A DNA stretch of 15,337 bases from the IMG/VR virus record IMGVR_UViG_2534681673_000006, positions 1 through 15,337 of that record. The stretch is one strand, 5' to 3'. The stretch is from a virus (taxonomy: Duplodnaviria > Heunggongvirae > Uroviricota > Caudoviricetes). The position numbers and the translations under genes are program-made. Within the stretch, counting starts at the first letter, position 1, and each line of letters begins with the position of its first letter. The notes under the pieces are model-generated. The model did not search any database. It was not told where the DNA came from and saw only the letters and a program-made list of their open reading frames with translations. Of the stretch, positions 166 through 14,179 are shown piece after piece.

Positions 166-620
166 TTTAATTAAGCAATTTTCACTGAGAAAGTGCCAAA
201 ATTCGCAAAATGACTACACCAGTGACTACACCGTTCGGTGCACTGTATGAAACAACGTGGAACAAATAGGCACAAGAAATATAAAGGCGGGTAATTTTAA
301 GGAGGCGTTGCTGTCGATATGGGGATCCCCATAACGGGGCTACCGGATTTTTTTTCCGGTTAACCTTTAATCAGCCAGGTGGGTTTTACATACCCTTGAT
401 CACCGTAATGATGATCCAGATGTGCACCTTTTCCACCAATGGAGGAAAAGCTCCAACCGTAACGATGATCGCTATGGTTGCCTCGATGGTCTGCGTGGTC
501 ATTATGACCATTCAGCCAGTGACCTTAATCAGAATTTTTCGCTAAAAAATGACGTTGGCCACGTCATCCGGAAAGCACAAAATCACGTCGATTTTTAATG
601 AACGGTTAAACCGTCTTTTT

Positions 621-655
621 GTCACGGTGTGTCACTGGTTGTCACTCTCCGTCAC
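621..655. repeat. Four GTCAC pentamers at exact 10-bp spacing (starts 621, 631, 641, 651); candidate phased protein-binding array
   Basis: Read directly: gtcacggtgt gtcactggtt gtcactctcc gtcacgattg. Preceded by near-palindrome aacggttaaaccgt (601-614). Confidence 0.5.
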
Positions 656-683
656 GATTGAGGTGGTGCTCATTCTGCCCGAC

Positions 684-915
684 CGCGCATTTTTGCGCTA
701 TCGGGAATATAAAACAGTTACCGCGCCGACTTCCTCAAATTGAGGTTTCCGAAAATATCAACTAGTTAACGATAAACTGGCGAGTAATTAAACTACGAAA
801 ATTTCGTAGTTTGTGAATATATTCCGGCCTGCTGGTTAACAGTCCTCAGATGTGAGGGATGTAGCCAGCGCAATTTTGCGTTATCGGGAATATCAAACAG
901 TTACCGCCGTCAGCT
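684..915. repeat. Two ~40-bp direct repeats (about 686-725 and 869-908, ~37/40 identical), each with a small hairpin; GTTACCGCCGT recurs at 952-962
   Basis: gcgcatttttgcgctatcgggaatataaaacagttaccgc versus gcgcaattttgcgttatcgggaatatcaaacagttaccgc. Non-coding region downstream of the packaging operon. Confidence 0.5.
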
Positions 916-952
916 ACCCAGCTCAGAATTGAGCCGCCTTTTAATCAACAAG

Positions 953-1234
953 TTACCGCCGTAACCGCTCCGGCTTCTTCCAGTGATACGTGATTTTCTC
1001 CTTCTCCCGATACAGTTCAACGCGGCGATTGTAGGCCAGCATTTCCAGAACGCGGATCCGTATGTCGCGCATATCCGCATCATTAAGCTGGATACCATCA
1101 CGGCGCATCACCTCAGCAACAACACGCGCATAATTTTCGGCTGTCACGCTGTCCGGCTGCGTGGTCTGTTCGTCAGCCTGCTGGCTGATTCCAGAGACGC
1201 GGCGGATTAATCGCAGTATTTCGGCTTCTGTCAT
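953..1234 (-). CDS. Hypothetical protein, 93 aa, immediately downstream of TerL
   Basis: ATG at 1234 preceded by GAGG-type SD 8 nt upstream; 13 nt after the terL stop. No recognisable domain. Confidence 0.5.
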   Translation of the reverse strand: MTEAEILRLIRRVSGISQQADEQTTQPDSVTAENYARVVAEVMRRDGIQLNDADMRDIRIRVLEMLAYNRRVELYREKEKITYHWKKPERLRR

Positions 1235-1247
1235 GCTGCTGACCTCA

Positions 1248-2909
1248 TTACACCCCGCTAAATTCTTCCAGTTTCTGGCGGTGGCTGTCGCTTATATCAA
1301 AAGCAAAATCCTCATGCTCTGCCTGGAATGTACCAAACGCCATCAGCGCCGCCACGCTCGGGTCTATCTTGTTCGGTGATTTTTTCTTGTTCGGCTTGAT
1401 ATTGGCGTTCGCGTCACTCTGCATCACGACGTTACTCATCGACCAGGACAACACCGGATCGCCACGATGCACAATCACCCTGCGGTTAACAAAAACTTCG
1501 AACGATTTCGCCGCCGGACTGAATCTGAGGTAGGTTTGCGGGAACGGCTCCACCTCAAAACCAGCCCCCTGTAATTGCGTCCTGAGATGCGTGGCGTTCC
1601 ACGTATCAAAGCCCACCAGCCTGATATTAAATTTCTCCGCATCCTGCATGATGTCATCTCTGATCCGGTCGTAATCAATGCAGTCACCTGGCGTTGTGCG
1701 TATCCAGCCCGCTTTAGCCCACTGGCGATAGACAGCGCGGTTTTTATTGGCGGGGTTCTGTAGCTGGAACTCCGGCAGATAATGACGGGAAACCAGCATG
1801 ATATTTTTACCGACCGGAAAGGCATAGCACACGCTGGAAATATCGCTGGTTGATGATAAGTCCAGCCCCGCGTAACACTCCTGCCCGTGTAAATCTTCCT
1901 CCGTGAACGTTCCGGCACACTCAGCCCATGCGCCGTTACCCATCCACGGGGTAGCCCCCTGGCACCAGATATTAAATCGCTTTGTCATCATCTCCACCCA
2001 TTGCGACGGAATACCCCGCGCTTTCTGGATGGTTGAGGCCAGTTTTTCACGATCCACGGAAACATCGATGTTAGGGTTAGCCTTTATCCACATCGCCGGA
2101 TCATCAACCTCGTTTTCGTCGTCCAGTTCGTAAATCAGTACAAAAATTGAATCGTTGACCTCTTCGCCGTCCAGGATCTGGCAGCAATAATCATAGTGCT
2201 GCTTACAGGCTGAAACGACGTTACTGCCCGATGTGGTAATGGCAAATAACAGCCCTTCGGGACGTGCGCCCATCCCCAGCTCAAGCGCGGAATAAACGCC
2301 GTTATCGGGGTGTAGGTGGTATTCGTCCACGATGGAAAGGCTGGGGTTTGTTCCCTCGATGGTTGCCGCTTTTGCTGCCAGCGGCTTTAACAGGCTGTTG
2401 CTTTTCGGGTGCATCACCTTGTGGGCCTGAATATTCACCCGCCTGCGTAACGGTCGGGATAAAAGGCACATCTGACGCGCATCATCAAAAACGATCCGCG
2501 CCTGGTCACGGCTCACCGCTGCGGTGTAAATATCCTGCTGCCCGTTCTCCATAATCAGAAACCAGTTAGCCAGAATCGCGGCGGTCGTGGATTTCGCATT
2601 TTTGCGCGGCACTTCGATAAAGGCGCTCGTGTATTTGCGCCGTCCGGTGGCCTTAACCTTAAAGCCGAGGATGCACGCAAAGGCGAACTGCTGCCACGGC
2701 TCCAGCTCAATGGGTCTGCCACGCATCGGCCCTTTTACGTGCGGGCACACCCTGGAAAAGGCAATAAACCGCTCCACAACCTCACGATCGAACGTGTAAA
2801 GGGGGCTTTCAAGGTCCGAAAAGTACCGTTTAACGGCCTGTTTCAGCCGTTTACAGGCCGGAATTTTGCCCGTTTTTACGTCTTCTGCGTACTTATTCCA
2901 GGCGGTCAA
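1248..2909 (-). CDS. Terminase large subunit (Terminase_1 / HK97-like TerL)
   Basis: 553-aa ORF with N-terminal ATPase region (EVPRKNAKS Walker A-like, IVDEYH) and C-terminal nuclease region typical of TerL. Apparent TTG start at 2909 with AGGA SD; overlaps terS end by 17 nt. Confidence 0.85.
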   Translation of the reverse strand: MTAWNKYAEDVKTGKIPACKRLKQAVKRYFSDLESPLYTFDREVVERFIAFSRVCPHVKGPMRGRPIELEPWQQFAFACILGFKVKATGRRKYTSAFIEVPRKNAKSTTAAILANWFLIMENGQQDIYTAAVSRDQARIVFDDARQMCLLSRPLRRRVNIQAHKVMHPKSNSLLKPLAAKAATIEGTNPSLSIVDEYHLHPDNGVYSALELGMGARPEGLLFAITTSGSNVVSACKQHYDYCCQILDGEEVNDSIFVLIYELDDENEVDDPAMWIKANPNIDVSVDREKLASTIQKARGIPSQWVEMMTKRFNIWCQGATPWMGNGAWAECAGTFTEEDLHGQECYAGLDLSSTSDISSVCYAFPVGKNIMLVSRHYLPEFQLQNPANKNRAVYRQWAKAGWIRTTPGDCIDYDRIRDDIMQDAEKFNIRLVGFDTWNATHLRTQLQGAGFEVEPFPQTYLRFSPAAKSFEVFVNRRVIVHRGDPVLSWSMSNVVMQSDANANIKPNKKKSPNKIDPSVAALMAFGTFQAEHEDFAFDISDSHRQKLEEFSGV

Positions 2910-3249
2910 GCTCGTCCTCTTCTTCTGTTTCCGGTGGATTTTTACGGCGGCTTATCGGGTCAAAACCGAGCAAGGAGGCCATTTTTATCATCACTCTTTC
3001 AGCGTCGGATTTTGCGCTTAATGCGGGGTTTCTGCTCTCGCCGCCCTGACTGTTAACAATGCTGAACCCGCGCGCCGCAAGGTCTGCAACGGCTTTCCGG
3101 TAAATGGAGTAGTTGACACAATACAGTTCCAGATTGCTCCAGTCGGCGGGGGTCAGGTCTCCCCGTTCCGCAAGCTGCCGCGATTTTTCCCGCCACTGCT
3201 TCACGGCGATATCATCCAGGTAGGCGGGGGCTTTCGGTGGTCTTGCCAT
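2893..3249 (-). CDS. Terminase small subunit, P27 family
   Basis: 118 aa; conserved P27-family TerS pattern (KQWREK...LELYCVNYSIYRKA...NPALSA...LGFDPISRRK) with acidic C-terminus. Sits directly upstream of terL. Confidence 0.75.
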   Translation of the reverse strand: MARPPKAPAYLDDIAVKQWREKSRQLAERGDLTPADWSNLELYCVNYSIYRKAVADLAARGFSIVNSQGGESRNPALSAKSDAERVMIKMASLLGFDPISRRKNPPETEEEDELDRLE

Positions 3250-3538
3250 GCTTATTTTTTCGCCAGATTATTTTTCAAAAAATTCCCGTGCATAAAAATT
3301 TGAGGAGGCGTTCGGTGCCCGGCGGGGTCGGGTTGGTCCTGAAAACGCCCCCCACCCCGTCATACAGCCTCATCAGCGATTGCGGAAACATTCCATAACC
3401 TCGCGGTCACGGTCGGTTAATCGCTTCGCTGTGATGCGTTCTGCGCGTCCTGACGCTTTATCTTTATGCCCTGTTTCCTGTGTCTTCCATGCGTCACGCT
3501 GCCTTATAAGTCCACGGATAAGGCGGTTTTGCTCCCGC
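3250..3538. other. HNH-terS intergenic region; candidate cos site (G-rich quasi-palindrome about 3317-3359)
   Basis: 289-bp non-coding gap at the position where HK97-like cos phages carry cos, between HNH and TerS. Contains gcccggcggggtcgggttgg ... cgccccccaccccg. Positional inference only. Confidence 0.3.
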
Positions 3539-3979
3539 TCATTCATCAGCGTCATACATCCAGTTATTGCGGTTAGCGGCCCGTTCTTCCTCTTCACGAA
3601 ATCCACCTGCGGCACGCTTGCTTTTTGTTGCCGGATCAAGCCATTTCGTTTTCTGGTTATGACACGCCTGGCACAATGGTTGATGGTTCCATTCGGGCCA
3701 GAAGAGAACATCATCACCGCCATTAATCGGGATAATGTGATCCACCACCACGGCGGGCGTATATATCCCCTTCTCAAGGCATCGCACGCATAACGGGTTT
3801 TTACTCAGATACATGGCGCGGTATTTGTCCCACTGTCTGGAATATCCACGCGCGCGGCGGTGTCCTCGTCTGGCATCCTCTGCACGCCATGCCGCCCGCC
3901 TGTGCTCCTCACACTTGCCGGATTTAACGCGCCTGTTACAGCCTGGTTCTGTGCATCGTCTTAATGGTTGCCACGGCAT
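3539..3979 (-). CDS. HNH endonuclease (phage packaging-associated)
   Basis: 146 aa; Cys-rich N-terminus (CTEPGCNRRV...CEEH) and HNH core VVDHIIPINGGDDVLFWPEWNHQPLCQACHNQKT. Adjacent to terS as in HK97-type cos systems. Confidence 0.8.
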   Translation of the reverse strand: MPWQPLRRCTEPGCNRRVKSGKCEEHRRAAWRAEDARRGHRRARGYSRQWDKYRAMYLSKNPLCVRCLEKGIYTPAVVVDHIIPINGGDDVLFWPEWNHQPLCQACHNQKTKWLDPATKSKRAAGGFREEEERAANRNNWMYDADE

Positions 3980-4275
3980 CAGTACACCCCCACATCACGG
4001 TAAGCCGTCCAGAGTGCGCCTATCGTCATGGGTACGCGTGTTTTTGCGTTATCCGCGACAATCTGGCGATTTTCATACAGGTGAGCGATAAACATCATGC
4101 AGCCAATCTTTATGGCTGGCGTGAACTCCAGCCCGTCATCAAAGCGCCTGCCTATGTGTATCTGGCACGCCTCAAGCGATGCGGCAATGTATCCGCTGAT
4201 TAACTGGTCTTCATCGTCGCCATCGATGCGGCAATGGAGTTTCACTTCTTCCAGGGTGATAAGTTCTTCTGTCAT
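3979..4275 (-). CDS. Head-tail connector protein (gp6-like)
   Basis: 98 aa; N-terminus ITLEEVKLHCRIDGDDEDQLISGYIAASLEA is the gp6-like connector signature. Stop overlaps the HNH start (TGATG). Confidence 0.7.
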   Translation of the reverse strand: MTEELITLEEVKLHCRIDGDDEDQLISGYIAASLEACQIHIGRRFDDGLEFTPAIKIGCMMFIAHLYENRQIVADNAKTRVPMTIGALWTAYRDVGVY

Positions 4276-4610
4276 TTTTCCGCGCCCTCACGACAAAGAA
4301 TTTCAAGGCGTGTCCTGGCGGCATCCGGCAGCGGCTGCCCGATGATATTCAGTACACGCCCCGCCAGCGGCCCCGTACTGACCTTTATCCGACTGGTGGC
4401 GTTGATGTCCTTCCGGTACCGTATCCAGATCCTTACGGTACCAATCGCCAGCTCTGCGCCCGATGAAATGGCCTCCTTGCTGCTGATCATGTTCACGCTT
4501 GCCCAGAGTGTGTGACCGTCCTCCCACGTTTCGAGTATTTCGCCCGTCATGGCTCTGGTCTGTTTCAGGGTCTGAATCGTTATCCTGTCACGCAGTCGCC
4601 CTATGTTCAT
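4272..4610 (-). CDS. Head closure / head-tail adaptor protein (SPP1 gp16 / HK97 gp9-like)
   Basis: Start taken at ATG 4610 (MNIGRLRDRITIQ...), which overlaps the portal stop as ATGA. Size and IRYRKDI motif fit head-tail joining proteins. The ORF track's longer start at 4652 lies inside portal. Confidence 0.65.
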   Translation of the reverse strand: MNIGRLRDRITIQTLKQTRAMTGEILETWEDGHTLWASVNMISSKEAISSGAELAIGTVRIWIRYRKDINATSRIKVSTGPLAGRVLNIIGQPLPDAARTRLEILCREGAEK

Positions 4611-5818
4611 TCCGGTTTTTCTCCCTCGCTGATTTTTACTTCCTGTTTCCATGCCTGGCTGAACTCATCACCACCATCACGCGGTGACAGTCCTTCACGT
4701 TCGCGGGCTTCGTTCGGACACATAACGCCGGATTTGATGCCGCGCTCATAGGTGGCAAAGCGTTCGCCAGGTGTGGCCCGTAACAGGTCCGCGCTGTCAA
4801 ACTCCACCTGATACCGGATACCAGGTACAGGCGAGGCCACCAGCAGGGCGTTTTTTATCTGCTGCTCAAAGTTCGCCAGCCACGGGCGCATCGTCATGGT
4901 GAGAAATGCGCGGCTTGCCTCGCTGAAATTGCTGTAGGTGCTGTTGCTGTATTCCTGCAAAAAAATCGGCGAGACGTTGAACATTCGGGCGATGTCTTCA
5001 ATGGTGAAGCGACGGGAGGCCAGCCATTCAGCATCCTGATTACTCATGCCCAGCTGCTGATAGCTCATACCCCCTTCAAGGATGGGCGTTTTTCCGGCGT
5101 TTCTGGCCCCTTTGTAGCGTTCCAGTGCGGCTAATGCCTGTTTGCCCTTCACGCCGTCCAGCCATTCGCCTGACGTGATAACCCCTGCCGCCATCATGCC
5201 ATCACGCATCACGCTCGCGCCGTGGCGTTGTTGGGCCAGCCCAAGCCCCAGCGATTCGCGGCAGATGGTTACAGGTGAGCGCCCCATAAAGCCGTCATCC
5301 GTGGAGTAACGAAGGTGAAGTACTTCCCACGGTAAATAGTTGCGGGTGTTTCCGGTGTAGGCGTCAGTGATGCAGTAGCGCCAGTTGTGTTCGCCTGTCT
5401 GCTCCACGTTCACCGACTGCGGCGGGTAAGGATGTAAAGCCGCCGGAAAACCATCACGCCCCCACTGAATCACCGCATAAGCATTACCGTTTAACAGGCA
5501 GTGGCGGATCATCATTCGCTTAAACTGGTAGGGGGTTTGCCATGCGTTCGGGCGCTCGTTGAGGATGTGATCGACCGGATGAGAATCAAGCCACTCGCGG
5601 GCCTCCTTCCCCTTCTCATTGCGTACCAGGTACAGGTAACACGGCATGGTAGCCACCGCCTCAGAGATGACCGTGACGGCGTTCATGACGGCGGGCAGTG
5701 ATTCCGCTGTCCCCGATGATACGTACTCACCCGCCCCCGTGTTCGATGTGCCAGCCAGCGCCATAAATTCATCAAGCGTCATGCTGCGCTGCTCTTTTTT
5801 TCTTCTGAAAGGCCACAT
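4607..5818 (-). CDS. Portal protein, HK97 family
   Basis: 403 aa; LLNGNAYAVIQW, LHLRYSTDDGFMGRSP, GKTPILEGGMSYQQLGMSNQDAEWLASRRFTIEDIARMFNVSP match the HK97 portal family pattern. Strong GGGGGTG SD. Confidence 0.85.
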   Translation of the reverse strand: MWPFRRKKEQRSMTLDEFMALAGTSNTGAGEYVSSGTAESLPAVMNAVTVISEAVATMPCYLYLVRNEKGKEAREWLDSHPVDHILNERPNAWQTPYQFKRMMIRHCLLNGNAYAVIQWGRDGFPAALHPYPPQSVNVEQTGEHNWRYCITDAYTGNTRNYLPWEVLHLRYSTDDGFMGRSPVTICRESLGLGLAQQRHGASVMRDGMMAAGVITSGEWLDGVKGKQALAALERYKGARNAGKTPILEGGMSYQQLGMSNQDAEWLASRRFTIEDIARMFNVSPIFLQEYSNSTYSNFSEASRAFLTMTMRPWLANFEQQIKNALLVASPVPGIRYQVEFDSADLLRATPGERFATYERGIKSGVMCPNEAREREGLSPRDGGDEFSQAWKQEVKISEGEKPE

Positions 5819-5819
5819 A

Positions 5820-6392
5820 TCACACCCCCGCTAAATCCACCCACCAGCGGCGATTATCCGCACGCGGCATTTTTTCGGGGTGCTGCTCATACAGGGAACG
5901 GCGGGCCAGCTCCACGCCGGAATCAGGGTAAGCCGGAACGGATGTAACGGTAATTTCGTACAGTTCCGCCACCAGCACGGTGCGCACGCATGGATCTGTT
6001 GTGGTATCCCATACATCCTTACGGGAACGAAAGCCAAAGCTCATGCCGGATATATCACCACGTTTAACCAGTTCGATAACGTCGCGCCCTGTGCTGGTAT
6101 CCGGTGGGGTCAGTTCAAAGCGTAACCCTGTTTCGTCCTCTTCCAGTTTCAGCGTGCCGGAACGGGTACGCCCCAGTAACATGCTGTGGTCATGCTCATA
6201 CAGGCCGCGAACGTCATTACCCGCTGCAAGCCATTCAGTAAACGCTCCCCGCTGGAATTTTTCGTAAAACTCACCCCATAACAGTTCTGAAAGCTTATCC
6301 CAGCGAACAACGTAGCCCGTCAGCGTACCGGCTCCGCTGGTGGTGATTTCCGATGACCGGATTTCCATACTCTTCATAATTTTTTCACCCAT
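5820..6392 (-). CDS. Prohead protease, HK97 family (peptidase S78/U35)
   Basis: 190 aa; LTGYVVRWDK...GAFTEWL...LYEHDHSMLLGRT...ISGMSFGF...TSVPAYPDSG fits the HK97 prohead protease pattern. Start ambiguous: ATG 6392 or ATG 6377 (the latter has a GGGTG SD). Confidence 0.8.
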   Translation of the reverse strand: MGEKIMKSMEIRSSEITTSGAGTLTGYVVRWDKLSELLWGEFYEKFQRGAFTEWLAAGNDVRGLYEHDHSMLLGRTRSGTLKLEEDETGLRFELTPPDTSTGRDVIELVKRGDISGMSFGFRSRKDVWDTTTDPCVRTVLVAELYEITVTSVPAYPDSGVELARRSLYEQHPEKMPRADNRRWWVDLAGV

Positions 6393-6402
6393 AAAACACT
6401 AA

Positions 6403-6420
6403 AGGGGCTTTTAAGCCCCT
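6403..6420 (-). promoter_or_regulatory. Hairpin between capsid and protease genes; candidate partial terminator or mRNA stabiliser
   Basis: aggggctt/aagcccct inverted repeat in the 39-bp capsid-protease gap, followed on the minus strand by uaguguuuu. Read from sequence. Confidence 0.35.
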
Positions 6421-6431
6421 TCTGTATGCTG

Positions 6432-7589
6432 TTAATCGTCGTCCTGTGGCAGTTCCAGAATCTTGATCGCGTTCGAATCCACCACGCCACCGCCTAAATA
6501 TTTCTGCGTGAAAATTTTGATGAAACCCGGCTCTGTGAGGTTGTCCGGTCTGGTGCGAACACCTGTTTCGTGATCAACAATGTAGTAACCGCGTTTGAAG
6601 TCACCCAGGGCAATAACGTTATCAGGCATAAACTCCAGATATTCGACCGGAAGGCCCAGCAACGTATCAGGATCACCCGCCTGTAAACGGTCGCGCCAGA
6701 TGTAATCACCGTTCGCGTTCTTCACCTTCTGAAGTTTTGCCGCCGTCGTGGAGTTAACCACCCAGACCGCGTTTTTGCGGTATTTTTTACGTAATGCAAA
6801 TTTCAGGTCGATCAGCGGGTCCGCAGATGTCCACGCCAGAGATTCGGAAGGTTTAATTACCTGCAACGTACCAAAATCACGCTCTTTGTCGTTCTTCTCT
6901 GCACGGGGTACGGATAAAAAACCTTTTGCTTTTTTGTCACCGTCGCCCACAACCAGATCGCTTTCTTCGGTTTCCGTGAAGGTGTCGCCAATCTCACCCG
7001 TCAGCCATGAAAGGATGTCCACATCGGAAAAATCCACGATTTCCTGTGTGGTGCGCGGGTACGCATAGACCGGATACAGCTTAATGCTCACCTCGTTAAT
7101 CTGCGGGGTGCTGGTCTGTTCGCGTGTCTTACCCTCTTCACCGTGGTTAACGGTCGCACCGCCAGCGGAAACAAGCTGCTTAAACTCGTTGCTGCTGATT
7201 TTCTTCACGGTACAGATGCGGCGCATGGTGGACTCATCCGCCAGCATTCGCATGATTTCGGTGTTCAGCTCGGGGATAACGGTATAACCACCATCAGCGG
7301 GAACGCCTGTACTTAATGCGCGGGTTTCACCCGTCAGAATGTAGTTTCGTAGTTCTGCGGGGTCAGTGGTCTGACTGCTTTTACCTGGCTTGCTGCGCTC
7401 TTCGTCTGCAATGGCTTCAAGGCGGGAAATGTCTTTATCGAGGGATTCAGCTTTAGCGCGTAATTCGTCAAATTTTGCGCCCTCAGCATCGTTAAGACTG
7501 CGGTTTTCTTTTTCCGCGTTCTCCAGCATGTCACGCATCTGATTTTTAATGGCGGTTTTCTGCTGGCGTAATTCGATTATTCTCTGCAT
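6432..7589 (-). CDS. Major capsid protein, HK97 fold, with N-terminal coiled-coil delta (scaffold) domain
   Basis: Start taken at ATG 7589 (MQRIIELRQQKTAIKNQMRDMLENAEK...), a typical delta-domain N-terminus, then a ~280-aa HK97-like body. The ORF track's GTG at 7637 would run the frame through a terminator hairpin. Confidence 0.8.
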   Translation of the reverse strand: MQRIIELRQQKTAIKNQMRDMLENAEKENRSLNDAEGAKFDELRAKAESLDKDISRLEAIADEERSKPGKSSQTTDPAELRNYILTGETRALSTGVPADGGYTVIPELNTEIMRMLADESTMRRICTVKKISSNEFKQLVSAGGATVNHGEEGKTREQTSTPQINEVSIKLYPVYAYPRTTQEIVDFSDVDILSWLTGEIGDTFTETEESDLVVGDGDKKAKGFLSVPRAEKNDKERDFGTLQVIKPSESLAWTSADPLIDLKFALRKKYRKNAVWVVNSTTAAKLQKVKNANGDYIWRDRLQAGDPDTLLGLPVEYLEFMPDNVIALGDFKRGYYIVDHETGVRTRPDNLTEPGFIKIFTQKYLGGGVVDSNAIKILELPQDDD

Positions 7590-7626
7590 AAAAAAAGTCC
7601 TGGGGTTAAGTAAGGAACTCCAGGAC
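7590..7626 (-). terminator. Strong rho-independent terminator whose U-tract abuts the capsid ATG
   Basis: Minus-strand RNA: GUCCUGGAGUUCC-loop-CCCCAGGAC (11-bp stem, one G.U) followed by UUUUUUU then AUG. No SD between hairpin and start. Confidence 0.6.
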
Positions 7627-7679
7627 GCGGCAAACACTCAACCGTTTTTCATAAGGAAATCAGCAATCGCACCGATCGT

Positions 7680-7727
7680 TTTCCCGCCTGGTAATGAATA
7701 TTGGCGGGCACATTAACAGGCGGGAAA
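7680..7727. promoter_or_regulatory. Perfect 11-bp inverted repeat tttcccgcctg (26-nt spacer) caggcgggaaa upstream of the head operon
   Basis: Read from sequence at 7680-7690 and 7717-7727. Lies between the two minus-strand terminators. Confidence 0.45.
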
Positions 7728-7802
7728 GTGGCCCCAGCGTCCTGGCACCACGGGCGAGAATAATCATGATTCAGTTCGGGTAAAATATGCCGATCCGCTC
7801 AG

Positions 7803-7830
7803 TGAACAACGTGGAACAACCACGAACAAA
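7803..7830. promoter_or_regulatory. Three 10-bp phased repeats (minus strand TTGTTCGTGG TTGTTCCACG TTGTTCAC); candidate late promoter / activator site
   Basis: Plus strand gtgaacaacgtggaacaaccacgaacaaa. The 15-mer aacaacgtggaacaa (7805-7819) is identical to 251-265. A weak sigma70-like TTGTTC-16-TATTTT follows on the minus strand. Confidence 0.4.
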
Positions 7831-7837
7831 TAATTTA

Positions 7838-7870
7838 CAAAAAATAACAAAAAGCCGGATTGCTCCGGCT
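7838..7870 (-). terminator. Rho-independent terminator ending the early (replication) operon
   Basis: Hairpin agccgga-ttgc-tccggct at 7853-7870, 5 nt after the stop of the last early gene, followed on the minus strand by UUUUGUUAUUUUUU. Confidence 0.6.
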
Positions 7871-7875
7871 GTTGA

Positions 7876-8148
7876 TTAGCTGTCTGTGTAATTACGCCAT
7901 ATTTCATCGCTTACACCATCCATACCCATTTCAGCATAAGTGCGATCGACTGCCTTTCTCAGGTCTCCGAAGTTATCCGGCGGCTCCGGTGGCCTCTGTG
8001 CCTTCCTGGAACATTCCAGCCGTCGCATCGTAACCTGATGCCGTTCCTTGTCTGTCTCCACCAGTTGCATGACTTCACCCCATCGCGCCGCCGCCCTCCG
8101 GTAAAAGCCTTTTGCCTCGAGTTCCTCCGCTATGCGGTCATGTGCCAT
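7876..8148 (-). CDS. Small regulator-like protein, 90 aa, possibly PerC-family (tentative)
   Basis: Start at ATG 8148 with GAGGGGG SD, 10 nt after the SSB stop. IAEELEAKGFYRRAAARWGEVM resembles, from memory, PerC-type small activators. Last gene before the head-operon control region. Confidence 0.45.
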   Translation of the reverse strand: MAHDRIAEELEAKGFYRRAAARWGEVMQLVETDKERHQVTMRRLECSRKAQRPPEPPDNFGDLRKAVDRTYAEMGMDGVSDEIWRNYTDS

Positions 8149-8158
8149 CGTCACCCCC

Positions 8159-8569
8159 TCAGAACGGAATATCATCACCGTAAGGGTCATCGCCTCCCGC
8201 TGGTGGCTGATTACCCTGTGTGCCTGTGGCTTTGCGTCTGTTCCCGCCAGGACGTGCCGCGCGGGCACTGATTACGCTGTCCGCAATAACCTGATACCCC
8301 TGCCGTGTTTCCCCGTTCTGTCCGGTCCACTGGCTTACCTGCATCGTGCCGGATACGCTGGCAACATCGCCTTTTTGATGTTTAGCCAGGAAATCGGCCT
8401 GTTTGCCAAATGCGATAACCGATAACCATAACGTCGCCTGTCCGTCATGTGCCTGGCTGCATGGCAACGATACCGCCATACGCGCCAGAGTCATCGGTGT
8501 GCCCTTGCTGCTCTGTTTTACCAGCGGGTCGTCCACCAGCCGCCCGTAAGCTGCAATTTGTGCTGTCAT
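8159..8569 (-). CDS. ssb: Single-stranded DNA-binding protein
   Basis: 136 aa; N-terminal OB-fold pattern (IAAYGRLVDDP...WLSVIAFGKQADFLAKHQKGD...VSQWTGQNGETRQGYQVIADSV), Gly/Pro-rich linker and the canonical acidic tail DDIPF. GAGGTGG SD. Confidence 0.85.
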   Translation of the reverse strand: MTAQIAAYGRLVDDPLVKQSSKGTPMTLARMAVSLPCSQAHDGQATLWLSVIAFGKQADFLAKHQKGDVASVSGTMQVSQWTGQNGETRQGYQVIADSVISARAARPGGNRRKATGTQGNQPPAGGDDPYGDDIPF

Positions 8570-8578
8570 ATTGCCACC

Positions 8579-8884
8579 TCAGTGAAGCGATCCGGCGTTG
8601 TTCTTTTTCATCTCTTCCATCATTTTTTCAGTGAGCATTACGCACTGAAAACCCATGCTTTTGATGTCTACGGGTTTCATGCCTTTGTCTGTGGATATCA
8701 CAGGCAGAATATCCTGATACACATCGCGGTCAGGGTAACTAAGCACACAAAGCGCCCATGATGCCACGGGTGAGGATCCTTCGTCTGTTTCAACCCACCA
8801 GCCTGGTGTAGCTGCGCTTATTTGCAGAATCGTGATCCGTCCGTTGTGCTTGTAAAATTTTTCACCAAATTTTGGTTCGCTCAT
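8579..8884 (-). CDS. Hypothetical protein, 101 aa
   Basis: ATGA overlap with the upstream gene and strong GGAGAGGTGG SD. No recognisable domain. Confidence 0.55.
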   Translation of the reverse strand: MSEPKFGEKFYKHNGRITILQISAATPGWWVETDEGSSPVASWALCVLSYPDRDVYQDILPVISTDKGMKPVDIKSMGFQCVMLTEKMMEEMKKNNAGSLH

Positions 8885-9132
8885 GATTCCACCTCTCCGG
8901 TTTTAACGTTGATTGTTGTTACCTGTTCCGCTTCGGCAATCTCCCGTTCTGTCAGCGTGGCAAAGTTTGCCGCCGCTGTGGTCATGAATGCGCTTATCAG
9001 TTCGGGATGCTCCTTCGCGTATCCTTCCCCCGCGTGGCGGTCTATCGTTCTGATTGCCACCTTTAAAGCGTGCTCTGTCATGTCTAACGCTTTATATTTT
9101 GGCTGTGTTCTGTCTCTGCGTTTTTGTGTCAT
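8881..9132 (-). CDS. Hypothetical protein, ~83 aa (start uncertain)
   Basis: Start taken at ATG 9132 (GGGGAG just upstream) because the longer ORF to 9327 would run through the iteron array. ATGA-coupled to the downstream gene. Confidence 0.4.
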   Translation of the reverse strand: MTQKRRDRTQPKYKALDMTEHALKVAIRTIDRHAGEGYAKEHPELISAFMTTAAANFATLTEREIAEAEQVTTINVKTGEVES

Positions 9133-9145
9133 CTCCCCACCTATA

Positions 9146-9335
9146 CCCACTTTTACCCCCCACTTTTCACAATTCCCCATCTCGTTAAAGGCGTGGGATT
9201 TGTAATTTTTATCATGCTGTTTCATAAGGATTTTTTTGCTCCCCACTTTTTGGGATGTATACAGGTCAAAAAGTGGGGGATTGTGTTTAAATTTTGTTAA
9301 ATTCCCCATACCCACCACTTTTGCCACCCACTTTT
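9146..9335. repeat. Iteron array (CCCACTTTT, at least 6 copies, both orientations); candidate replication origin
   Basis: Copies at 9146, 9159, 9242, 9269 (inverted), 9314 and 9327, including a perfect IR ccccacttttt-17 nt-aaaaagtgggg. AT-rich spacers. Directly downstream of the replication ATPase stop (9335). Confidence 0.55.
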
Positions 9336-10318
9336 TACAGTGGCCCTACATCATCGCCGTCAACATAGATAACGCCGTCTTTTTCCAGCTTGCCCAGCCA
9401 GCGCCGGAAGTGCTTTATTTCGTACCCCAGTTTTTTCATGTCATCACGTAACAGCGGGATCGTGCACTTGTCGCCGTTCTGTGTGCGTGAACGGATACAC
9501 CCCCATAGCGCGGTATGGTTTTCCGTCTTGTTGCCTGCCTCTTCGATGCGCTCCAGTTCAACGGGAGGGCGCGGCTTATCCACCACCACCAGCGACGAGA
9601 TTAACTCCCCGTCAGCGTCGGTAAAAAGCTCCACCACCCGCAAATCATAGGCAGCCTCTTTGAGTTCCTCCGCGTCCTTCATTTTGGTGCATGAGATAAC
9701 CAGCGCTTCGCTTCCTGCGTCCTCCCTGCGTATCCGGTATTCAGCATCCAGCGAAGCACGAAATGCACTGGAACCGCGCGCGCCTTTCGTCTCATCCTTG
9801 CCGGAATGGTGAACCACCAGCACCGTGGCCCCTGTGCGTCGTTTCAGTTCGTCACAACCACGGATAAACGCCCCCATATCACGGGAATCATTTTCATCAT
9901 TCCCACCAAAGCAACGCGCCAGCGTATCCAGAATAATCATGCGTACAGGTTTACCCGTTTCCCGCTCCACCTGACGGGCAGCGATAACCATTTCATCAAC
10001 ATCAAGCGGGGCAGCCGGAAAGATGGGGCGGTTTACCAGATACAGATTTTTCACCTGCTCATCGTGCACAACCTCCCAGGCTTTTACACGACGCGGAACA
10101 CCTATACCGCCTTCACCAACCACATAGAGAACCGCACCATGTGCAACCCTGCGGCCTCCCCACTGGCGACCAGTGGCAACATGGCACGCCCACGATCCGG
10201 CAAGGAATGATTTATAGGACCCGCTAGCCCCGTATATGCTGCATAGCGATACCGCCGGAATAATCCCCTTAACCACGTAATCCAGTTGCGTGTCATATCC
10301 GGTAGATCCAACGCTCAT
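9335..10318 (-). CDS. Replication ATPase, AAA_25 / RepA-like (RecA-fold helicase or loader) with C-terminal winged-helix-like domain
   Basis: 327 aa; Walker A GASGSYKS, Walker B MIILDT, VVHHSGKDETKGARGSSAF motif typical of AAA_25 proteins. ATGA overlap with upstream gene. Confidence 0.75.
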   Translation of the reverse strand: MSVGSTGYDTQLDYVVKGIIPAVSLCSIYGASGSYKSFLAGSWACHVATGRQWGGRRVAHGAVLYVVGEGGIGVPRRVKAWEVVHDEQVKNLYLVNRPIFPAAPLDVDEMVIAARQVERETGKPVRMIILDTLARCFGGNDENDSRDMGAFIRGCDELKRRTGATVLVVHHSGKDETKGARGSSAFRASLDAEYRIRREDAGSEALVISCTKMKDAEELKEAAYDLRVVELFTDADGELISSLVVVDKPRPPVELERIEEAGNKTENHTALWGCIRSRTQNGDKCTIPLLRDDMKKLGYEIKHFRRWLGKLEKDGVIYVDGDDVGPL

Positions 10319-10734
10319 CGGTAGCGTGGTTTTTCGCTGGTGGTTTTTTCTTCCGCCGGCTCTTTCCCGCGCACCCGTTCCAGGTATTCGCGCCAGTTCT
10401 CCCGCATATGGCTGTGCATCCCTTCGGGGTAATAATTCGCATCAGTTACACCCGCCGCCGCCAGCTTGTGCGCAATGGCATTAATATTTGATGGCCTGAT
10501 GTGGCCTGCCTTGTACAGCCGGACACAATAGCGCCCCTCGTCGATGATTCTCAGGTCTGCCAGTTCATCCAGTTGATCATCAGCCAGCACAACGGGAGGC
10601 ACATTATCGCCAGCCAGTCGCCCGTCCTGTTCCTGCCACTGTTTCGCATGTGCCCAGGCATCACTACCCGCAAAAATAATGACTTCGGTCATCTTGTCGT
10701 AAGGCTGTTTTTTTAAGTTCGGTGCGCTTTTCAT
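10315..10734 (-). CDS. Hypothetical protein, 139 aa, translationally coupled to the replication ATPase
   Basis: ATGA overlaps at both ends. No recognisable domain; position suggests a replication accessory role. Confidence 0.5.
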   Translation of the reverse strand: MKSAPNLKKQPYDKMTEVIIFAGSDAWAHAKQWQEQDGRLAGDNVPPVVLADDQLDELADLRIIDEGRYCVRLYKAGHIRPSNINAIAHKLAAAGVTDANYYPEGMHSHMRENWREYLERVRGKEPAEEKTTSEKPRYR

Positions 10735-11030
10735 TTCTTGCCCCTGAATCCGTTAATCATGGTTTTCAGCTTCTGGATGTTTGCCCGTGCCCTGGCGTTG
10801 CTGGTGGGCACGTTATGCGGCGCGGTCTGTACCAGAGAAAAATCACGCCGGAACTGATAAACAGGCATCACGCAATCATATTCGTAACCTTCACGGCGGT
10901 AAGTTACGCACCGTCCCGCCACGCCCTTAATCATTACCGTGCCGCCGTACTGGTCGCGGTAAATATCACCGCGCGTAAATTTAGGGTGAGTGTTGCCACT
11001 GGCAGTTAAGCCAGAATATTTAAGTTTCAT
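10731..11030 (-). CDS. Hypothetical protein, 99 aa
   Basis: GGAGA SD 9 nt upstream of ATG 11030; ATGA-coupled downstream. No recognisable domain. Confidence 0.5.
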   Translation of the reverse strand: MKLKYSGLTASGNTHPKFTRGDIYRDQYGGTVMIKGVAGRCVTYRREGYEYDCVMPVYQFRRDFSLVQTAPHNVPTSNARARANIQKLKTMINGFRGKK

Positions 11031-11035
11031 TATTT

Positions 11036-11269
11036 TTATTCTCCGGTGTGCTGTTCGCTATATCTGTCGTGCAATGTCTCTATTTCTTGTAGTTCCATTA
11101 TTACAGGCTCAAGAAGCGTTATTAATGCCGTGACAATTCTTGATTTTTGTTTGTCGCGTTCATTGTCGCCAAGTGTTTCAAGCCATATGCGCAATATTTC
11201 CAGCATGTTTTCACTGTGAGAAAGTGCAAGAAATACGCGTTCTGTTGTTTCGTGGTAAATATCACGCAT
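11036..11269 (-). CDS. Hypothetical protein, 77 aa
   Basis: GAGGA SD; start overlaps the upstream stop by 8 nt. No recognisable domain. Confidence 0.5.
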   Translation of the reverse strand: MRDIYHETTERVFLALSHSENMLEILRIWLETLGDNERDKQKSRIVTALITLLEPVIMELQEIETLHDRYSEQHTGE

Positions 11270-11495
11270 GGCTTACATCCTCAGGAAATTTTCTTCTGTA
11301 ACGCGCCTCTGCCACATATTCCGCATAATCGGCGGCGATATTCAGTACATCAAGCCCCGTTGATTTATATTCTCTCGTGGAAAGTAAGAAAAAAGCCGCT
11401 CTAATAAGTTCTGGCATTGACGAAAGCGCATCAGCCGCATCATCAGGAACGCCGGAAAATTCTTGTTTCAGGGAATTAAAACGATCATCACGCAT
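11262..11495 (-). CDS. Hypothetical protein, ~77 aa
   Basis: Start taken at ATG 11495 (GGGGGG SD), overlapping the upstream stop by 8 nt. No recognisable domain. Confidence 0.45.
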   Translation of the reverse strand: MRDDRFNSLKQEFSGVPDDAADALSSMPELIRAAFFLLSTREYKSTGLDVLNIAADYAEYVAEARYRRKFPEDVSHA

Positions 11496-11928
11496 AACCC
11501 CCCCCATTTTCACAATCAGCAACAAGAATATTTTTAGCGTCATTCAGCGACCGCGTTGCGGTGTATCGGATACATTCCAGGGCGAATAGTGTGTATTCTT
11601 CCCTTTCTTCCTTTTGTGCAAGCTCTGCTGTGCATTCAATATCAATAAGCGCGTGCATCAGCGTAGTGAGTGCGGCGGCGGCTGCGTCCGGTGTGGTTTT
11701 ATTGCACATGTACCCCTCCGCATTTTTTTCGTTAGAAATAAGCGTTCTTCTTTCCTGTTCATCGATCAGGAATACGCAGACCTCACCGCTAAGGCGTTTA
11801 AGTAAGCCGATGATTGCCCCTGATTCGCTGTCGGTCATCATGCCTGGGTAATCCTCTGCCAGTGCGCAAATAACTTCGATTTGGTGGGCGCGTTCTGCTG
11901 CCTGTTGTAGTGTGATTTCCTGGCTCAT
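11488..11928 (-). CDS. Hypothetical protein, 146 aa
   Basis: GGGGGT SD; ATGA overlap with upstream gene. No recognisable domain. Confidence 0.5.
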   Translation of the reverse strand: MSQEITLQQAAERAHQIEVICALAEDYPGMMTDSESGAIIGLLKRLSGEVCVFLIDEQERRTLISNEKNAEGYMCNKTTPDAAAAALTTLMHALIDIECTAELAQKEEREEYTLFALECIRYTATRSLNDAKNILVADCENGGGYA

Positions 11929-12125
11929 AAGCCTACCCCCTGACGAATACGGGCGGCGAATACCATCACGCAGCCAGCCGGGGATTGCTGGCGTGCGTTC
12001 TGTTCGCTAGTGGCCTCGATGGTAATCACGCGCGGTTGTGCCGTGCTCAGGGCGATAAAACGCCAGGTGAATTTATTCAGGTTGTGCAAGTCCCGCCCTT
12101 GCGGGTGTGTGGTATGATTTCTCAT
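11925..12125 (-). CDS. Small protein, 66 aa, first gene of the leftward early operon; possibly Icd-like (tentative)
   Basis: Start at ATG 12125 with GAGGT SD. HPQGR and FAAR motifs resemble, from memory, P4-type Icd-like proteins. Downstream of the divergent operator region. Confidence 0.4.
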   Translation of the reverse strand: MRNHTTHPQGRDLHNLNKFTWRFIALSTAQPRVITIEATSEQNARQQSPAGCVMVFAARIRQGVGL

Positions 12126-12152
12126 AGCTACCTCGATACTGTTGCTATCGTT

Positions 12153-12197
12153 GGTGGTTAGACGCCCTGCATGTGTTGCGAGCACTGCGGGGCGTTG
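12153..12197. repeat. Conserved ~45-bp stem-loop element, copy A; copy B at 12943-12992
   Basis: ggttagacgccc(t/c)g(c/t)atgtgtt...cactgcggggcgttg; about 85% identical. Both copies can form a 10-bp stem with one mismatch; loops differ. Confidence 0.5.
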
Positions 12198-12223
12198 CTT
12201 AATTTGAGTGACAAAACTCAAAC

Positions 12224-12279
12224 TGTGCGCACAGATTAAAATCATATGTGCGCACAGATTAAAATCATATGTGCGCACA
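12224..12279. promoter_or_regulatory. Operator array: three copies of perfect palindrome TGTGCGCACA in 23-bp tandem repeats, in the divergent promoter region
   Basis: Palindromes at 12224-12233, 12247-12256, 12270-12279; repeat unit tgtgcgcacagattaaaatcata. A partial half-site tgtgcgcc sits at 12317-12324 near a candidate TTAACA-17-TATTGT promoter for the RHH gene. Confidence 0.55.
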
Positions 12280-12353
12280 TGTCAATACTTAACATCTCAT
12301 TTTTTTTGCTGTATTGTGTGCGCCCATAAAGTCCATTTAAGTGAGGTGCATCA

Positions 12354-12551
12354 ATGTCTAGCGGTAACACAAACAACAAATCAGCAAAGAAAAATATTCG
12401 ATTCCCACATGAGCTTATAGATGGGATTGATGCCAGCGTTGAACAAGAAAAATTAACTAATCCTAGTGCTAATTTTTCCGCATGGGTCTTAGATGCCTGT
12501 GGACGCAAATTAAAATATGAACAGCGCCGGAAGGCCAAAGAATCAGAATAA
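12354..12551 (+). CDS. Ribbon-helix-helix (CopG/Arc-like) DNA-binding protein, cassette 1
   Basis: 65 aa; GAGGTG SD 5 nt upstream. KNIRFPHELIDGIDASVEQEK...SANFSAWVLDACGRKL fits an RHH strand-helix-helix. Paralogous to the 13113-13292 protein. Confidence 0.65.
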   Translation: MSSGNTNNKSAKKNIRFPHELIDGIDASVEQEKLTNPSANFSAWVLDACGRKLKYEQRRKAKESE

Positions 12552-12600
12552 TCACTATCAGCGCCGTGGTGTGAGGTACTACGGCGCATTGCTTTACAGG
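12527..12600 (+). repeat. ~74-bp near-identical junction element (second copy 13268-13341) spanning the RHH gene 3' end and a hairpin
   Basis: aaggccaaagaatcagaataat(c/t)actatcagcgccgtgg(t/c)gtgaggtactacggcgcattgctttacagg. Stem gcgccgtgg/ctacggcgc with a GAGG-containing loop. Confidence 0.55.
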
Positions 12601-12608
12601 GCAGTAAC

Positions 12609-12836
12609 ATGACCAACAACACACTATCACCAATACAAGACACGCAAACGCAAGATGATGAAATCATCCGGCAAAGGCAGTCAGAAGCCTGCGCCAGACT
12701 TGAGGAAGAACTAACCAGAACAAAAATACCACCACCAGCGCCGCGCTTAGTTCCACCAGAAAAATTTGCCCTTGAAGATTTTGTCGATAAATACCCACGG
12801 CGGCTTAAATCCGGCAAAAACCGACCGCCAGGATGA
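12609..12836 (+). CDS. Small partner protein, cassette 1, 75 aa, unknown function
   Basis: Starts MTN; C-terminal motif FALEDFVDKYPRR is shared with the cassette-2 partner (FVLDEFLKKYSR). Proline-rich middle. No known domain. Confidence 0.5.
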   Translation: MTNNTLSPIQDTQTQDDEIIRQRQSEACARLEEELTRTKIPPPAPRLVPPEKFALEDFVDKYPRRLKSGKNRPPG

Positions 12837-12999
12837 GTGCACAAAACCGAACTATGAAACGGATTATTCCGTTTCCGGGGCGTTTGTGTGTGTATAAAGA
12901 GTAAGCTATGCTCTTTTATAGCCATAATCGTTACCTCAATTAATGGTTTGGTTAGACGCCCCGTATGTGTTCCCATCACTGCGGGGCGTTGTTGTTTTG

Positions 13000-13092
13000 G
13001 GTGTATTTCACCTTTATTTTTAAATCTACATTCAGGTGAAATACACCGCAAGACTTTTTTTATCTTTTTTTTTGCGTATACTGAAATACACC
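13000..13092. promoter_or_regulatory. Operator/promoter of cassette 2: perfect 13-bp inverted repeat ggtgtatttcacc / ggtgaaatacacc plus a third half-site overlapping a TATACT -10
   Basis: Arms at 13000-13012 and 13035-13047 (22-bp spacer); tgaaatacacc at 13082-13092 directly after TATACT (13077-13082). AGGAG SD follows. Confidence 0.55.
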
Positions 13093-13112
13093 GATTATCA
13101 GGAGAACCAGAA

Positions 13113-13292
13113 ATGGCAACAGGTGCAAAGAACGCAAAATCACAAATGACAACGGTCAGAATCCCGCATGAGGTAATGACCGATATTGAGCAACTTAAAG
13201 AACCTGGCGAAAGTACCGCCGGATTTCTAGTTACGGCAGCAAAAGGCGAGATCAAACGCCGCCAGCGCCGCAAGGCCAAAGAATCAGAATAA
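13113..13292 (+). CDS. Ribbon-helix-helix DNA-binding protein, cassette 2
   Basis: 59 aa from ATG 13113 (AGGAG SD). TTVRIPHEVMTDIEQLK...TAGFLVTAAKGEIKRRQ is paralogous to cassette 1 with divergent DNA. Shared C-terminus RRKAKESE. Confidence 0.65.
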   Translation: MATGAKNAKSQMTTVRIPHEVMTDIEQLKEPGESTAGFLVTAAKGEIKRRQRRKAKESE

Positions 13293-13349
13293 TTACTATC
13301 AGCGCCGTGGCGTGAGGTACTACGGCGCATTGCTTTACAGGTACACACA

Positions 13350-13553
13350 ATGACCAATAAAGAATCAACCAATACACCATCGCAAAAAACGAACAGAGAG
13401 CACGAAAATATGGCGCTCGAGCATGAATCAGAAAGATTCGCTCCATGCGCTTTTGTCCTTGATGAGTTTCTAAAAAAATATTCACGTTCTGAACGGATGA
13501 AAATGGCAGCACAATACGGCCCCAACAAGCAAGGTAATTGCCCACCAGCCTGA
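13350..13553 (+). CDS. Small partner protein, cassette 2, 67 aa, unknown function
   Basis: Starts MTN; same position relative to the junction hairpin as the 12609 gene; shares the F.L(E/D)(D/E)F..KY.R motif. Confidence 0.5.
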   Translation: MTNKESTNTPSQKTNREHENMALEHESERFAPCAFVLDEFLKKYSRSERMKMAAQYGPNKQGNCPPA

Positions 13554-13621
13554 TCACGGTTATCATGTTCGGGCTTATGATTGTTGACACATACGGCGCA
13601 GCGGGTTAATTGTTCAGAAAG

Positions 13622-13649
13622 GCGGTTCCATATCGGGACCGCTTTTTTT
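13622..13649 (+). terminator. Rho-independent terminator of the plus-strand RHH operon
   Basis: Stem gcggttcc/gggaccgc (8 bp, one G.U), loop atatc, followed by TTTTTTT. Confidence 0.6.
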
Positions 13650-13765
13650 ATGCCTGAAAATACCCTATAGCATGGCTTTTCAGATTCACCAGGGCGAACG
13701 AATCCCCGCCCCTGTACGGGCGTATATTTCATCATGGTTATACCTCAGTATTATGGCGTTTATTC

Positions 13766-13789
13766 CCGATACCGAGATCCCGGTATCGG
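13766..13789. promoter_or_regulatory. Perfect 9-bp inverted repeat ccgataccg-agatcc-cggtatcgg downstream of alpA
   Basis: Read from sequence. No U-tract on either strand, so more likely a protein site or an mRNA 3' stabiliser than a terminator. Confidence 0.35.
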
Positions 13790-13829
13790 TCAATAATGGA
13801 TTGGTGGTGGCTGTGTGCCGCCAGTCTTT

Positions 13830-14018: not shown

Positions 14019-14179
14019 TATTGCCCCCTTTCGTTTCTTAAAGAGTTATTTCGTGTTCTATTGCGTTGGGATGTGTCTGATTGTGTCAGGATGATTCAGA
14101 GTTGGCAAATGTTGGTGTCGCATGGTTTACAGAAAGAGGAATAATCAGGATAAAATCATTTAAATTCATGTTAATACAA

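Follow-up and report, generated by a model that had tools for sequence, protein, structure and literature searches.

A conserved post-capsid hairpin and a candidate leader RNA in the capsid-first packaging operon of a phage satellite

Does a hairpin placed directly behind a major capsid gene help to set the amount of capsid relative to protease and portal, and is it connected with a head-gene order that runs opposite to that of HK97? This question was raised by a 15,337-nt stretch of DNA (IMG/VR record IMGVR_UViG_2534681673_000006, positions 1 to 15,337, assigned to Caudoviricetes), referred to below as the window. By its gene content, the window is a capsid-forming phage-inducible chromosomal island (cf-PICI) of the E. 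coli/Shigella type, since it carries an integrase, alpA and a replication module and has no tail genes. A first-pass annotation of the sequence had pointed to a capsid-protease-portal order with a hairpin and U-rich tail in the 39-bp gap behind the capsid gene, and had proposed that partial termination or 3' stabilisation there yields many capsid subunits and few protease and portal subunits. All the relevant genes lie on the minus strand and were identified with Pfam. The elements at the centre of the question are as follows.

6432-7589, minus strand: HK97-fold major capsid gene, 385 aa, first in the packaging operon (PF05065, E 2.1e-61)
6401-6422, minus strand: GC-rich hairpin GAAGGGGCU-UAAA-AGCCCCUUU, beginning 9 nt past the capsid stop codon (folding, centroid -14.8 kcal/mol; terminator scan)
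6391-6400, minus strand: interrupted U-rich tail AGUGUUUUAU (terminator scan)
6385-6390, minus strand: probable protease Shine-Dalgarno (SD) sequence GGGUGA, aligned with the conserved UGGAGU of relatives (alignments, SD energy)
5820-6392, minus strand: prohead serine protease S78 gene, with the RefSeq start; the likelier start is 6377 (PF04586, E 7e-48)
4607-5818, minus strand: portal gene, beginning 1 nt past the protease stop codon (PF04860, E 2.5e-90)

The hairpin was present as described. Within the 39 nt between the capsid gene and the annotated protease start (6393-6431), a 9-bp stem (6422-6401), five of whose pairs are GC, closes a 4-nt loop and precedes a broken U tract, and a rule-based scan flagged the hairpin as terminator-like. 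Its short loop and GC-rich stem fit an intrinsic terminator, for which 5 bp or more are expected. Reckoned from the GC core, the U tract reads UUUAGUGUUUU; its course, UUU-AGUG-UUUU, is interrupted, yet it passes the scan's rule of five U in eight positions. Its energy does not by itself set the hairpin apart: among non-overlapping 30-nt windows on its strand it ranks 7th in stability, within the top 0.2% of windows, and terminator-like sites were not enriched in the window as a whole (24 versus an expected 17.1 +/- 4.4). It is by position together with conservation that the hairpin rises above chance. It occupies one of only two real intergenic gaps in the packaging module, in which the junctions downstream of the protease are 1-nt gaps or overlaps.

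The gap is probably longer than the annotation implies. In relatives, a conserved UGGAGU stands 6-8 nt ahead of the protease ATG, and at that position the window reads AUGGGUGA. The SD energy was -3.7 kcal/mol for the ATG at 6377 versus -0.1 kcal/mol for the ATG at 6392, and the latter, the first ATG, falls within the U-rich tail and SD region. Because of the conserved SD sequence, these energies and the starts used in relatives, the true protease start is probably 6377, and the RefSeq-equivalent start at 6392 is probably wrong. The gap would therefore be about 54 nt, and the protease probably has 185 aa instead of 190.

A post-capsid hairpin was found at 166 of 182 capsid-protease junctions, comprising 67 of the 78 junctions in genomes (49 distinct sequences) and 99 of the 104 in IMG/VR (39 distinct sequences). 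It lies right after the capsid stop, with energies of -7.8 to -21.7 kcal/mol, and occurs across Enterobacterales, Orbales and Pasteurellales, persisting though capsid identity drops to 51-75%. The stem core GGGGC/GCCCC and its flanking A/U pairs were nearly invariant, while the loop took 26 different forms in the genome set alone and the spacers on either side were unconserved. Stem variants were compensatory (GGGAU/AUCCC, CGGGGC/GCCCCG and GGAGGC/GCCUCC). Proteus and Pasteurella carry rebuilt, longer hairpins with better U tracts, that of Proteus having been remodelled to 14 bp. Stems were anchored in Python for these comparisons; the MAFFT junction alignment was out of register because loop lengths differ, and was left out of the pair counts. 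Because the stems are conserved with compensatory changes while loops and flanks vary, these patterns indicate that the hairpin is under purifying selection. The U run that follows the GC core in relatives is mostly 3-5 nt long, with at least three U at 54 of 67 junctions, and 37 of the 67 pass the five-in-eight rule when it is applied from the core.

Conservation was not universal. Eleven genome junctions lack the hairpin (L005, L012, L028, L031, L046, L071, L043, L053, L055, L069 and L070). The Xenorhabdus lineage shows a clean deletion of the hairpin with the SD sequence kept, and in Photorhabdus temperata, Symbiopectobacterium and the Pantoea symbiont the capsid and protease genes abut or overlap. 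Absence from several lineages means that the hairpin is not essential. As a separate observation, several lineages that have lost it (Xenorhabdus, Photorhabdus, Arsenophonus, Symbiopectobacterium and Ca. Pantoea) live as symbionts of nematodes or insects, and Xenorhabdus genomes contain many copies of cf-PICI islands.

Comparison of gene order bore out the inversion. In the window, Pfam gave the order capsid-protease-portal-closure-adaptor-HNH-TerS-TerL, which departs from the canonical HK97 order of TerS-TerL-portal-protease-capsid-adaptor-closure. HK97 itself and five HK97-type phages (ST64B, YeP1, VW-6S, D14E and Burkholderia phage vB_PR2a) all showed TerL-portal-protease-capsid-adaptor-closure. 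The comparison with related satellites that the first-pass annotation had called for was uniform: 200 of 200 related loci were capsid-first, with capsid-protease-portal in 80/80 genome loci from Enterobacterales and Orbales (capsid identity 60-99%), in 118 IMG/VR loci, and in two satellites deposited as 'phages' (Pasteurella Pmp8 and vB_KppS-Ant). No departure from this order was seen among loci with enough DNA. The order itself is not new, being a published hallmark of the family: capsid-protease-portal has been reported as the conserved order of proteobacterial cf-PICIs (Alqurainy et al., bioRxiv 10.1101/2022.09.08.507074).

The implied association between hairpin and inverted order did not hold. 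All six canonical-order phages carry a GC hairpin directly 3' of the capsid stop. These phages were picked singly, as sampling by capsid alignment in IMG/VR returned only ST64B-like prophages of 96-100% identity. Their hairpins are as follows.

HK97: GGGGGCGGG-GAAA-CCCGCCCUUUU after the capsid stop
ST64B: GGGGCGCC-GAAC-GGCGCCCC after the capsid stop
YeP1: GGGGCC-UGAU-GGCCCCUUUCUUUU after the capsid stop
VW-6S: post-capsid hairpin without a U tract
D14E: post-capsid hairpin without a U tract
vB_PR2a: post-capsid hairpin present

In the HK97 RefSeq record (NC_002167), positions 5192-5213, immediately after gp5, are annotated as a 'putative terminator', and a like annotation follows the major tail gene. 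Judged from these sequences, the hairpin appears to be an ancestral or widely shared 3' element of HK97-type capsid genes, one that has travelled along with the gene.

What the hairpin may do was then considered from its transcriptional setting. A rule-based scan of the capsid-protease gap gave no promoter-like site on the coding strand, and therefore the downstream genes must be made by read-through. The SD energy of the capsid gene was only -4.0 kcal/mol (AGGA, partly within a hairpin), as opposed to -9.9 for portal, -9.7 for HNH and -8.5 for closure; with so weak an SD, a boost at the mRNA level for high capsid output is plausible. We infer that the hairpin terminates transcription or stabilises the transcript, and thereby tunes stoichiometry. 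The form of this that we favour, and hold to be probable if by no means assured, is a weak intrinsic terminator that leaks, with a stem that also guards a capsid-only 3' end. RNA polymerase would partly stop at the hairpin and leave a capsid-only 3' end, which the stem-loop would then shield from 3'-to-5' exonucleases, so that capsid mRNA becomes enriched. Polymerases that read through would supply protease, portal, connectors and terminase, whose cistrons overlap or are closely coupled. With the capsid gene first, the hairpin would divide a protein needed in about 235 copies (T=4 shell) from products that are needed in about 12 copies or act catalytically.

Several observations weigh against a leaky terminator. 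The U tract is short and interrupted, and when the five-in-eight rule was applied after the full stem, only 5 of 67 hairpins passed. The two Pseudomonas phages, VW-6S and D14E, keep the hairpin without any U tract, which argues that termination is not the conserved activity. At least three lineages (the Xenorhabdus group, Photorhabdus temperata, and Symbiopectobacterium with Ca. Pantoea) lack the hairpin or have overlapping capsid and protease genes. If AlpA antiterminated here as it does in P. aeruginosa, where it is a Q-like processive antiterminator (PMC7969949, PMC9371919), it would suppress termination at the hairpin. Nor do published transcriptomes help the case: in the EDL933 RNA-seq of Landstorfer 2014, the head genes of the island CP-933C stood at 0-4 reads per kilobase per million mapped reads (RPKM) in all 11 conditions (PMC4048457 supplement), and with uninduced capsid, protease and portal at 2, 2 and 0 RPKM the operon is silent and a step between capsid and protease is unreadable (PMC4048457). 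Beyond that study, the CP-933C literature mentions the island only in passing; the cf-PICI papers contain nothing on terminators, promoters, stoichiometry, the hairpin or the leader described below, and the literature gave no usable explicit statement that a terminator after a capsid gene tunes stoichiometry. The proposal that capsid mRNA exceeds protease and portal mRNA because of the hairpin survives in part. Strong conservation, the promoterless gap and the weak capsid SD make it plausible, but the tie to the inverted order falls away and at least three lineages dispense with the hairpin.

The main rival is that the hairpin is purely a post-transcriptional stabiliser. In that case polymerase would be terminator-resistant, for instance modified by AlpA, and no termination would occur; an endonuclease would cut downstream, the stem-loop would block 3' exonucleases and, with the 5' leader, a long-lived monocistronic capsid mRNA would result. 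The island does encode alpA (PF05930), overexpression of which is alone enough to drive reproduction of the cf-PICI EcCIEDL933, and conserved hairpins bracket the capsid open reading frame (ORF) on both sides. The stem is conserved while the U tract varies, to the point of absence in VW-6S and D14E, and the late operon of HK97 bears several 'putative terminators' after highly expressed genes. That operon is Q-antiterminated, as is usual in lambdoid late transcription. Antitermination by a PICI AlpA is, however, an extrapolation from the P. aeruginosa protein, and the three or more U right after the GC core in 54/67 cf-PICI hairpins would be needless for a pure exonuclease barrier, a point tempered by the fact that these U also lengthen the stem by pairing with upstream A. 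We regard pure stabilisation, including the cleavage model, as a rather unlikely but serious explanation. Both it and a leaky terminator predict a capsid-only RNA ending at about 6400-6390.

Two further accounts fared less well. The hairpin might be a passenger inherited from an ancestral portal-protease-capsid block, transferred with the capsid gene to its leading position and with little present function. Its occurrence behind the capsid gene in canonical-order phages fits this, as do its several losses while the rest of the module stays. It has nevertheless been kept over Enterobacterales, Orbales and Pasteurellales at 51-75% capsid identity with spacers and loop randomised, and the independent compensatory stem changes and rebuilt Proteus and Pasteurella hairpins speak for purifying selection; such stem covariation makes a functionless relic improbable. 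Least credible of all, with scarcely any chance of being right, is a complete terminator that ends a capsid-only unit, with protease onward expressed from its own promoter. The window hairpin does satisfy the scan's terminator rule, but the U tract is weak, and the 39-54 nt of the gap, equally short in relatives, are filled by hairpin, tail and SD sequence. As there is neither space nor a promoter-like site on the coding strand, this arrangement was rejected.

On the other side of the capsid gene lies a structured leader, with the following elements.

7590-7775, minus strand: structured 5' leader of the capsid gene (fold z = -4.9; covariance model)
7751-7728, minus strand: leader helix P1, loop GACG
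7727-7680, minus strand: leader helix P2
7626-7597, minus strand: leader helix P3, followed by seven U (7596-7590) that abut the capsid ATG

The interval from the upstream gene to the capsid ATG, roughly 230 nt, is conserved. A covariance model of the leader, R1 (147 positions, 44 pairs), was run against 90 sources totalling 974,647 bases, and matched 28 of the 90; each match ended at the capsid ATG (loci L003-L081 and L169). In the alignment, 97% of cells were paired, and 15 pairs showed double changes, compared with 7.0 +/- 1.6 in shuffles (0/500) and 2-6 in slid controls. Many of the pairs are G-U, which indicates that the RNA lies on the sense strand. The exact 21-mer of P1 was found in at least 120 IMG/VR contigs, 118 of them with a cf-PICI capsid gene 110-149 nt downstream, the remaining two being interrupted by the contig end. 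The leader of the window itself has diverged (7.1 bits with R1, E 0.016 in 601 nt) and retains the same three-hairpin layout; compared with 25 relatives, three successive pairs of its P1 have changed in compensatory fashion, and the GACG loop has stayed the same. Searches of Rfam with the whole window, with 6300-7900 and with the leader and junction of a relative gave no credible family, the best scores lying far below the gathering scores. These results point to a three-helix leader RNA of about 150 nt at the start of cf-PICI capsid genes, covarying, absent from Rfam and newly seen.

The arrangement of its helices suggests a regulatory role. In the E. coli type, P3 is GUCCUGGAGUU..AACCCCAGGAC (about -14 kcal/mol), with seven U, or eight in some IMG/VR copies, and then at once the capsid ATG. 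On paper, P3 with its U7-8 looks like a better intrinsic terminator or attenuator than the post-capsid hairpin. P3 also sequesters AGGA, the only SD-like sequence of the capsid gene, and loci that lack the leader still have a hairpin next to, or covering, the capsid start codon. The P1 apex and the 5' strand of P3 have complementary sequences: in the window, 7745-7737 faces 7629-7621 over 9 nt (CCAGGACGC with GCGUCCUGG), in most relatives AGACGUG faces CACGUCU over 7 nt (alignment columns 12-18 against 152-158), and in L073 GGCGGG faces CCCGUC with 6/7 matched, including one double change from U-A to G-C. Folds with this alternative pairing cost 3.5 to 9.5 kcal/mol over the minimum-energy fold. 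In the shuffle statistics (19/500) the P1-P3 pairing was weakly supported, because its columns are nearly invariant, and a degenerate P1 pattern run against IMG/VR for the same pairing returned only the E. coli type plus random matches without a nearby capsid gene. The complementarity suggests mutually exclusive folds, i.e. a switch. In such a switch, the P1 apex would pair with the 5' strand of P3 and so unfold the hairpin lying next to, or masking, the capsid ribosome-binding site, and in the E. coli type P3 could double as a terminator with its seven or eight U.

We considered the put-type (putL/putR) antiterminator RNA of HK022 as an identity for the leader and rejected it, as R1 had no match in HK022 26-40.7 kb or HK97 1-8.5 kb; put RNA shares with the leader only the coarse trait of two adjacent stem-loops. 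Separately, a box, TTTGTAAATTATTTGT, lies at 7826-7841 on the minus strand, about 65-70 nt upstream of a -10-like TAT(A/C)TT that precedes P1, and is kept in 26 of 26 aligned loci. It occurs once in the window, with no recurrence, for example near alpA. The box could be an activator site or an IHF-type site for the promoter of the packaging operon.

Taken with the 3' hairpin, the leader raises the possibility that in proteobacterial cf-PICIs the capsid cistron is a separately controlled RNA unit. The P1 apex would open P3 at the capsid ribosome-binding site so that capsid production becomes switchable, the 3' hairpin would help to set the capsid:portal ratio, and the capsid-first order would have evolved to put the only high-copy protein under one leader and one hairpin. 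We offer this larger scheme tentatively, and think it doubtful as a whole.

The remaining features of the window place the packaging operon in its island.

1248-2909, minus strand: large terminase gene, TerL (PF03354, PF20441)
2893-3249, minus strand: small terminase gene, TerS, P27 family (PF05119)
3539-3979, minus strand: HNH endonuclease gene (PF01844)
3979-4275, minus strand: gp6-like head-tail adaptor gene (PF05135)
4272-4652, minus strand: head closure or head completion gene; RefSeq-equivalent start near 4610 (PF05521, annotation of locus L001)
7853-7870, minus strand: terminator-like hairpin and U run directly after the PerC/PchE-like gene (terminator scan)
7876-8148, minus strand: PerC-family (PchE-like) regulator gene, just upstream of the packaging operon (Pfam)
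8159-8569, minus strand: SSB gene
9335-10318, minus strand: RepA-like helicase gene, AAA_25
10315-10734, minus strand: ORF with a primase-like N-terminus
12242-13735, minus strand: 497-aa ORF directly downstream of alpA, without a family match
13830-14018, minus strand: alpA, the PICI inducer gene (PF05930, E 5e-18)
14393-15337, minus strand: tyrosine integrase gene (PF00589)

At 15.3 kb, with integrase and alpA, the window is close to the 10-15 kb of a cf-PICI. It contains its own replication module (helicase, primase-like ORF and SSB), the HK97-type trio of HK97-fold capsid, S78 protease and portal (PF05065, PF04586, PF04860), and the full head and packaging set of capsid, protease, portal, connectors, HNH, TerS and TerL in Pfam. 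A DUF4222 gene and small ORFs also lie upstream of the packaging module. Pfam and PHROGs scans of the ORFs of at least 50 aa gave no tail or lysis families, with the 497-aa ORF left without assignment; this ORF had no match in Pfam, PHROGs or PADLOC. The cf-PICI authors describe the part of these islands in which it lies as variable and of unknown function, and the ORF is possibly an accessory or defence gene. The capsid shares 99% identity with a RefSeq 'phage major capsid protein', 358 complete E. coli genomes carry copies of the head module at 95-99.9% identity, and a near-identical island occupies the tqsA locus of strain RM10042.

The terminator at 7870-7853 insulates the packaging operon from pchE, and the PerC/PchE-like gene is a separately expressed, moron-like unit; in EDL933, pchE reached 69 RPKM versus 2 for capsid (PMC4048457 supplement). 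Towards the other end of the operon, the packaging module has just one further sizeable gap that is non-coding or codes poorly, at 3250-3538 on the minus strand between HNH and TerS. The corresponding gap spans about 140-540 nt in relatives, and in HNH-dependent packaging of the HK97 type the cos site would be expected here.

If the hairpin does set the ratio of capsid to portal and protease, it would provide an RNA-level account of the assembly of complete T=4 heads from one operon in a 15-kb satellite, and would explain why cf-PICIs rearranged the very stable HK97 head-gene order. It would also help in the engineering of cf-PICI particles, now under study as delivery vehicles with exchangeable tails. 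As the order is textbook for the family and the hairpin a common annotated feature, the present result is confirmation more than surprise, and the leader RNA is the more promising lead.

Among known systems, the closest are EcCIEDL933 (CP-933C) and the other proteobacterial cf-PICIs. Like the window, they are about 15 kb long without tail or lysis genes, and run from int, alpA, a replication module and a PerC/PchE-like gene into capsid-protease-portal-connectors-HNH-TerS-TerL. The window differs from CP-933C in its integrase and insertion site, lying at the tqsA locus as does L001, and downstream of alpA, where it carries the 497-aa ORF. T=4 small capsids, helper induction and the use of helper tails have been shown experimentally for EcCIEDL933, whose head module is near-identical to that of the window and whose shell has 11 pentons and 30 hexons at T=4 (He et al., bioRxiv 10.1101/2025.02.11.637232).

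The putative terminator behind HK97 gp5 is alike in being a GC-rich hairpin with a short U run between the capsid stop and the next start, inside a long co-directional morphogenesis operon. Its stem is longer than that of the window (11 bp, about -26 kcal/mol in context). Unlike the window hairpin, it follows portal-protease-capsid and precedes the adaptor gene, and therefore cannot separate capsid from portal and protease by termination.

A functional parallel comes from T7, in which the leaky terminator T-phi stands behind gene 10, the major capsid gene, as Dunn and Studier reportedly described in 1983. There too a stem-loop terminator follows the major capsid gene and a fraction of polymerases continues to downstream structural genes, and stem-loops at the 5' and 3' ends lend the capsid mRNA further stability. 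In T7 the phage's own RNA polymerase meets a class I T7 terminator without homology to the hairpin, whereas here the host enzyme would act at a predicted terminator. The papBA genes of the pap pilus and pufBALMX of Rhodobacter likewise use differential mRNA stability or partial termination to make one major and several minor subunits. Although these systems are unrelated to the window and the analogy is functional only, in both an intercistronic hairpin follows the gene for the most abundant subunit and gives a more abundant short transcript.

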